From assembly GCF_003334815.1 (NCBI RefSeq), contig NZ_QOWO01000001.1: 64,000 nt of DNA; one strand, given 5' to 3'. How positions within the stretch are numbered: the stretch's first letter is position 1; each line of letters begins with the position of its first letter. The position numbers and the translations under genes are program-made. The notes beneath the pieces were generated by a model. The model saw only the letters and a list, made by a program, of their open reading frames with translations. It was not told the DNA's origin and made no database searches. This document shows, piece by piece, positions 13,675-13,820 of the stretch. The stretch comes from Escherichia coli. GTDB lineage: Bacteria > Pseudomonadota > Gammaproteobacteria > Enterobacterales > Enterobacteriaceae.

Positions 13675-13820
13675 CGTTACTCTCTCCCATCCGGACTCTA
13701 ACCGTCGGCCCCGGAATTACACCGGATCTGCTGTCCTTTGAGTTCGCACCCAAAGCGCTCGCGGGCTTTCAACTGAGTTGATTTACCGCCGGTGGGGAAT
13801 TTCGCCCCGCCCTGAGAATA
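13675..13820 (-). ncRNA. sroG: FMN riboswitch (RFN element, sroG) in the ribB 5' leader
   Basis: Minus-strand sequence has the conserved FMN-aptamer blocks (GGGCGGGGCGAAATTCCCCACCGGCGGTAAA ... CCGACGGTTAGAGTCCGGATGGGAGAG) upstream of ribB. Confidence 0.85.

Follow-up and report, generated by a model that had tools for sequence, protein, structure and literature searches.

The FMN riboswitch (sroG) in the ribB leader of Escherichia coli: position, conservation and mutually exclusive helices

Work on the FMN riboswitch in the ribB leader of Escherichia coli K-12 (sroG) reportedly includes that of Winkler 2002, Hollands 2012, Pedrolli 2015 and Bastet 2017, among which Hollands 2012 is said to be the primary paper on Rho at ribB. 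The element is already known, is annotated and has been studied experimentally in detail, and what is given below on binding of FMN, on protection from RNase H, on pauses and on the dependence on Rho is drawn from the literature. The name sroG is used for the ribB FMN riboswitch according to PMC9885008. In the landmarks used here, those of Eschbach et al. 2024 (PMC11571811), the full-length ribB construct is 282 nt long with 10 codons included, the 3' strand of P1 lies within nt 137-146, and polymerase pauses at nt 175, at nt 181 and, close to the AUG, at nt 247-249. The FMN concentration for switching of the E. coli ribB leader (Kswitch) was found to be about 176 nM, with values of 23-206 nM across probes and polymerase stall positions (PMC11571811); specific binding of FMN with a change of conformation, as expected of this riboswitch family, is thereby reported for this leader. 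A Rho termination score of 3.1 was determined for ribB by ChIP-qPCR (PMC5499598).

Two other groups of riboswitches are close to the ribB system. The RFN element of Bacillus subtilis ribD (ribDEAHT) shares with it the RF00050 family, the ligand and the feedback-repression logic for riboflavin synthesis. The platform of ribD is, however, an FMN-dependent intrinsic terminator according to the literature, whereas the ribB leader is without one and is controlled by sequestration of the AUG and Shine-Dalgarno together with Rho. The TPP riboswitches of E. coli thiC, thiM and tbpA differ from ribB in aptamer family and ligand but share its regulatory architecture, in which ligand is sensed co-transcriptionally until a pause close to the start codon, an anti-P1 element competes, translation is repressed and Rho terminates transcription. 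At thiM, the action of Rho is indirect and follows the inhibition of translation, whereas direct exposure of a rut site has been proposed for ribB in the literature. Here, we describe the ribB leader of a 64-kb stretch of E. coli DNA (the window, to which all coordinates refer).

Identity and position of the FMN aptamer

The segment 12000-15500 of the window (3.5 kb) was scanned with all 4227 Rfam families, and the whole 64 kb was scanned in addition at the gathering thresholds. By this approach, RF00050 (FMN) was found to match the minus strand at 13823..13675 with 120.9 bits compared to a gathering threshold of 66.2 (E = 6e-29 in the 3.5-kb scan); in the whole-window scan the same match (E = 1.1e-27) was the sole FMN match. 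The alignment spanned model positions 1-138 of 138, with all consensus helices formed and one non-standard pair (G-A in P4), and the junction blocks AGGGC, ACCGGCGGU, AGCCCGCGAGC, GCAGA, GCCGACGG and GGAUGGGAGA were found in the aptamer. An FMN riboswitch is recognized by six helices P1-P6 arranged around conserved junction nucleotides, by lying on the strand of a riboflavin biosynthesis or transport gene within its 5' leader, and by a score above the RF00050 gathering threshold over the full model; all three were found at this locus, where the ribB AUG follows 103 nt after the aptamer. The downstream ORF was identified as ribB by NCBIfam TIGR00506, an equivalog-domain model (287.7 bits, cutoff 177.45). 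A RefSeq feature of type 'riboswitch' with the note 'FMN riboswitch' coincides with the Rfam match in the one E. coli record inspected. In addition, each of 5426 complete E. coli genomes was found to carry the 501 bp at 13500-14000 with an identity of at least 99%, with 'riboswitch', ribB and ubiK as the features there, which places the window in the E. coli chromosome.

An earlier note on this DNA had already read an FMN riboswitch in the minus-strand leader upstream of ribB, had considered it a known element and had tied this reading to the outcome of a covariance-model scan. Each of these points was confirmed: instead of lacking a significant match the scan gave the score above, the downstream gene is ribB, and the element carries both the RefSeq annotation and the landmarks of the published E. 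coli ribB riboswitch. The interval proposed in that note, 13675-13820, was right to within 3 nt; its 5' end was 3 nt short, such that one base of P1 (5' strand 13821..13814) was clipped.

Published numbering was transferred to the window by a single offset, in which published position n is window position 13824 - n and the Rfam match begins, at its 5' end, with G13823 as position 1. This offset fits all landmarks of PMC11571811 that were checked: C148, G149, C175, G176, U181 and U247 are the stated bases in the window, the AUG at nt 253-255 is 13571..13569, and nt 282 ends codon 10. Compared at these published landmarks to the laboratory construct, the element is the same as K-12 sroG with no difference detected, and in both ribB lies downstream and ubiK is divergent. 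Based on the RF00050 match, the highly conserved locus and the coinciding RefSeq annotation, we identify the element as the catalogued ribB FMN riboswitch (sroG). We regard this identity, including the dual-control switching scheme described below, as nearly certain, and none of the evidence contradicts it.

That the aptamer-like blocks are a chance resemblance, in a region that is merely promoter or spacer between the divergent ribB and ubiK genes, is a concern that stems just from the general tendency of short conserved blocks read by eye to mislead. This reading has next to no probability, given the E value, a score nearly double the gathering threshold over a match that spans the full model and keeps to the consensus structure, the 'riboswitch' call of RefSeq and the retention of the aptamer in 117 species despite varying loops. 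A cobalamin (AdoCbl-II) riboswitch, for which RF01689 gave a match at 13677..13745 (22.3 bits, E = 0.076), is vanishingly improbable: this score is below the gathering threshold of 36.5, the match has many non-standard pairs and falls entirely inside the FMN match, which scores far higher, and the gene downstream serves the synthesis of riboflavin and not of B12.

The ribB transcript most likely starts at G13823, from a promoter TTGCTG-17-TATAGT that we propose by reading of the sequence and its conservation. Among 116 Enterobacterales loci, all six positions of the putative -10 hexamer were at least 95% conserved, as was the TTG of the putative -35 hexamer at the same spacing. A sigma-70 consensus scan did not detect the ribB promoter, as its -35 hexamer matches the consensus at 3 of 6 positions only.

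Table 1. Features of the ribB locus. Window positions are given with the lower number first; leader positions follow the published numbering.
Feature	Leader nt	Window position	Strand	Basis
Putative -35 hexamer TTGCTG, ribB promoter		13853..13858	-	Sequence reading; 17 nt upstream of -10
Putative -10 hexamer TATAGT, ribB promoter		13830..13835	-	Sequence reading; ends 7 nt before G13823
ribB 5' leader, 252 nt (aptamer and expression platform)		13572..13823	-	Landmarks match PMC11571811
FMN aptamer (RFN element; sroG locus)		13675..13823	-	RF00050 and RefSeq feature
P1 5' strand, UUAUUCUC (partner 13677..13684)	3-10	13814..13821	-	Rfam alignment; 150-nt minimum-free-energy fold
P2 hairpin	17-19 with 27-29	13795..13807	-	Rfam alignment; 97.6% paired (117 leaders)
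P3 hairpin, variable apical hairpin at 43-55	35-38 with 60-63	13761..13789	-	Rfam, fold; 99.4% paired
P4 with extension 69-76 with 81-88	66-68 with 92-94	13730..13758	-	Rfam alignment, fold
P5 hairpin	98-102 with 110-114	13710..13726	-	Rfam; 100% paired, one pair altered on both sides
P6 hairpin	120-122 with 130-132	13692..13704	-	Rfam alignment; 100% paired
P1 3' strand, GAGAGUAA	140-147	13677..13684	-	Rfam alignment, fold, 117-leader alignment
Candidate Rho-loading (rut) region, C-rich and G-poor	161-230	13594..13663	-	Composition, C/G 1.6-2.0
Small conserved platform hairpin; loop holds non-conserved AUG of 46-aa ORF	157-160 with 167-170	13654..13667	-	Predicted fold, covariation
anti*-P1 3' strand, CGUUAUUUU (FMN-free partner nt 141-149, 13675..13683)	175-183	13641..13649	-	Full-length fold
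Predicted anti-P1 3' strand, GCCCUGA (FMN-free partner nt 9-15, 13809..13815)	210-216	13608..13614	-	247-nt minimum-free-energy fold
Sequestering stem 5' strand	213-225	13599..13611	-	Predicted fold; 99.8% paired
Shine-Dalgarno GUGAGG, 10 nt upstream of AUG, in loop closed by sequestering stem	237-242	13582..13587	-	Sequence, fold
Sequestering stem 3' strand, covers AUG 13571..13569	248-261	13563..13576	-	Fold, 117-leader alignment
ribB, 3,4-dihydroxy-2-butanone-4-phosphate synthase, 217 aa, regulated gene		12918..13571	-	ORF, TIGR00506, RefSeq
Intrinsic terminator of ribB, 13-pair stem then T run		12856..12887	-	Terminator scan
ubiK, divergent neighbour		13945..14235	+	NF047835, 150.1 bits

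Mutually exclusive helices of the expression platform

When the first 150 nt of the leader were folded alone, P1 (nt 3-10 with 140-147) was found to close a multi-helix aptamer. The ViennaRNA fold did not reproduce the consensus P5 and P6, as nt 97-102 were mis-paired with 130-135, and the aptamer structure was thus taken from the Rfam consensus. When the 247-nt transcript, with its 3' end at the second pause, was folded, nt 9-15 were paired with 210-216 (anti-P1) and P1 was lost. In line with this predicted loss, FMN binding by complexes stalled at 247 was reported to be about 330-fold weaker (PMC11571811). The exact pairing of anti-P1 is our own prediction from this fold. In the full 282-nt RNA, anti*-P1 (nt 141-149 with 175-183) was formed and was extended by pairing of GGGAG (136-140) with CUCCU (199-203), and a stem of nt 213-225 with 248-261 covered the AUG and enclosed the Shine-Dalgarno. 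The identical AUG-sequestering stem was formed when P1 was enforced in the full-length fold. Since nt 213-216 belong both to anti-P1 (210-216) and to the sequestering stem (213-225), the two helices would compete, and this competition would constitute the switch. An expression platform is expected to offer a pairing alternative to the strands of P1, and the predicted and conserved, mutually exclusive helices found by computation are of this kind.

Regions P1, anti*-P1 and the sequestering stem agree with the probe data of PMC11571811, in which FMN was found to protect nt 137-146 (the P1 3' strand) and nt 215-227 from RNase H and to make nt 184-193 more accessible. For anti*-P1 there is mutational as well as RNase H evidence in that work, which pairs nt 141-149 with 175-183, reports exactly two G-C pairs in this helix (G149:C175 and C148:G176) and places U181 in the stem (PMC11571811). 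In the window, pause sites 175 (13649) and 181 (13643) fall within the 3' strand of anti*-P1, and the pause region 247-249 corresponds to 13577..13575.

A ligand-controlled intrinsic terminator and antiterminator, as in B. subtilis ribD, would be suggested by the shared aptamer family and by the hairpin at nt 157-170, which is followed at a distance by the U-rich CGUUAUUUU (175-183) with its published pauses. This mode of control is very improbable for ribB: a terminator scan of the minus strand from 13675 to 13571 (aptamer to AUG) detected no intrinsic terminator, the U run is 5 nt away from a stem of 4 bp, and the literature describes Rho-dependent, not intrinsic, termination together with translational control. 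The leader without an intrinsic terminator and with a C-rich, G-poor platform is instead consistent with the class of Rho-dependent attenuators (E. coli ribB, S. enterica mgtA), with Rho dependence itself taken from the literature. Nucleotides 161-230 are a candidate rut site by their C-rich composition and by the published gain in accessibility of nt 184-193 with FMN (PMC11571811), and together with the lack of a terminator they fit the published dual control by blocked initiation and Rho-dependent termination.

Dual control of ribB by FMN would proceed as follows. The first 149 nt would fold into the six-helix aptamer, and FMN would bind during transcription within a time window that closes before polymerase reaches the pause at nt 247. 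Bound FMN would lock P1 (3-10 with 140-147) and leave strand 213-225 free to pair with 248-261, in a stem that buries the AUG and encloses the Shine-Dalgarno such that initiation of translation is blocked. Rho would then gain access to the C-rich platform, left untranslated, with early termination of transcription as the outcome. Without FMN, nt 175-183 would capture the 3' strand of P1 (anti*-P1) and nt 210-216 its 5' strand (anti-P1), the sequestering stem would be disrupted, and ribosomes would load so that ribB is made and transcribed through. That the SroG leader fragment (about 150-250 nt, prematurely terminated or processed) is more than a by-product of attenuation and has a role of its own, e.g., in trans as a small RNA or in the buffering of FMN by binding, is purely hypothetical and very improbable.

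Comparison among Enterobacterales leaders

Species-representative genomes were scanned with a DNA pattern consisting of the aptamer 3' block, 85-115 nt and ATGAAYCARAC, and from the 120 stretches obtained 117 Enterobacterales ribB leaders were aligned with the window. The aptamer was found to be kept in all 117 species, with varying loop sequences. Helices P1-P6 were 97-100% paired in these relatives (99.1% of cells for P1), the G-A of P4 excepted; this G68-A92 mismatch was invariant in 117 of 117 sequences. The invariance of P6 is explained in part by the search pattern, which fixed nt 126-140. Among the switching helices, anti*-P1 was paired in 92.8% of cells and anti-P1 in 97.9%, and overall the OFF-state helices were paired in 96.3% and the ON-state helices in 95.1%. 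When the partners were slid by 1-3 columns as a control, pairing was 35-53%. All four pairs of the small hairpin 157-160/167-170 change on both sides (e.g., G-C to A-U in 20 sequences). Strong covariation was not obtained for the expression-platform helices in the 117 leaders and was weak for all but this hairpin, which we attribute to the similarity of the sampled Enterobacterales, in which most columns of the aptamer as well as of the sequestering stem are invariant, and to the search pattern, which fixes nt 126-140 and 253-263 and makes covariation there uninformative. Conservation of the switching helices is real, and their covariation is thin. The present analysis establishes to which family the element belongs, where it lies and in which gene context, that it is conserved, and that its predicted helices exclude each other.

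Three ORFs cross the leader: one of 48 aa (13595..13741, plus strand) and one of 44 aa (13619..13753, minus strand) that overlap the aptamer, and one of 46 aa (13522..13662, minus strand) that overlaps the expression platform and has its AUG at nt 162. The existence of these ORFs is what speaks for a small protein or upstream ORF encoded in the leader. The AUG at nt 162, however, lies in the loop of the covarying hairpin and is replaced in many relatives (e.g., by GCCCTGGC and GCTTCGGC), and no Shine-Dalgarno was seen before it on reading of the sequence; the 46-aa ORF was rejected because this AUG is not conserved. The 44- and 48-aa ORFs cross or run antisense to the structured aptamer, and none of the three is annotated in RefSeq. 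A coding function of the leader is therefore extremely unlikely compared to the FMN riboswitch.

Insertions were observed in the apical loop of P3 in some of the relatives. A short form of 45-50 nt (L026, L049 and L060) is found in Kluyvera genomosp. 1, Citrobacter sedlakii and Salmonella enterica arizonae, and a long form of about 115-127 nt (L032:4973-5099 and L063:8201-8327) in Kluyvera genomosp. 3 and a Pseudocitrobacter MAG. By Rfam scan at the gathering threshold, the aptamers with a short insert were detected (106-110 bits) and both aptamers with a long insert were missed. The long insert folds as one long imperfect hairpin, and further copies of it were found at unrelated positions in two other stretches (L082 and L085) and, at 1-8 copies per genome, in 4699 of 5426 E. 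coli genomes, where it is unannotated among the matches listed. Based on the single long hairpin and the copies at other loci, the long insert is a dispersed palindromic repeat, which looks ERIC/IRU-like. No P3 insertion is present in the ribB aptamer of the window.

Gene neighbourhood and significance

The earlier note had assigned a 300-bp untranslated region to the locus; this length was in error, as the leader spans 252 nt (13823..13572) and 373 bp (13572..13944) separate ribB from ubiK. It had also reported ORFs of 72 to 85 aa over this region. These (13341..13559 and 13309..13566, plus strand) were found to be antisense within the ribB coding sequence, short of the leader and the aptamer. 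On the other side of the aptamer, the mechanically called ubiK ORF has 60 nt more at its 5' end (13885-13944, plus strand) than the form annotated from 13945 and is 116 aa compared to 96 aa in length. The 96-aa form is preferred, since the extension enters the region of the ribB promoter and since alignment to the NCBIfam profile begins at residue 1 of this shorter form.

Downstream of ribB, a match to STnc240 at 12849..12919 was sub-threshold (29.1 bits compared to 55) and was rejected as the ribB terminator hairpin. A small ORF at 12486-12680 (minus strand) lies downstream of this terminator; its shorter form (56 aa, start 12656) is the RefSeq 'protein YqiD', and none of the NCBIfam models matches it. 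Downstream of ubiK, a fimbrial subunit-like ORF (14519..15070, plus strand) and a long usher-like ORF (15121..17634, plus strand) were labelled by reading of their translations. In E. coli O157:H7 strain PV15-279 (L001:2022-2222), glgS is located directly after ubiK, so that the presence of this fimbrial cluster varies among E. coli.

Elsewhere in the window, two tandem Sib RNA genes were detected at 22520-22669 and 22895-23044 (minus strand; RF00113, 147.7 and 142.1 bits); Sib RNAs act as the antitoxins in the Ibs/Sib family of type I toxin-antitoxin systems. Three matches to naRNA4 (RF02564), which we take to be REP-type repeat elements, were found at 30964-31034, 59070-59151 and 59170-59251 (minus strand) with 66.9-79.3 bits. 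The single tRNA gene of the window (43367-43442, plus strand) has the anticodon CAT and was called tRNA-Met by ARAGORN, a call that may stand for an initiator or elongator tRNA or for a tRNA-Ile with lysidine modification.

The FMN riboswitch explains why ribB has an untranslated leader of 252 nt and gives grounds for the rejection of the small ORFs across it. It is an established antibacterial target (roseoflavin, ribocil). In E. coli, the ribB riboswitch is the already known feedback sensor that sets riboflavin synthesis, and it is a target for metabolic engineering, as its deletion derepresses ribB and riboflavin production (PMC9885008).
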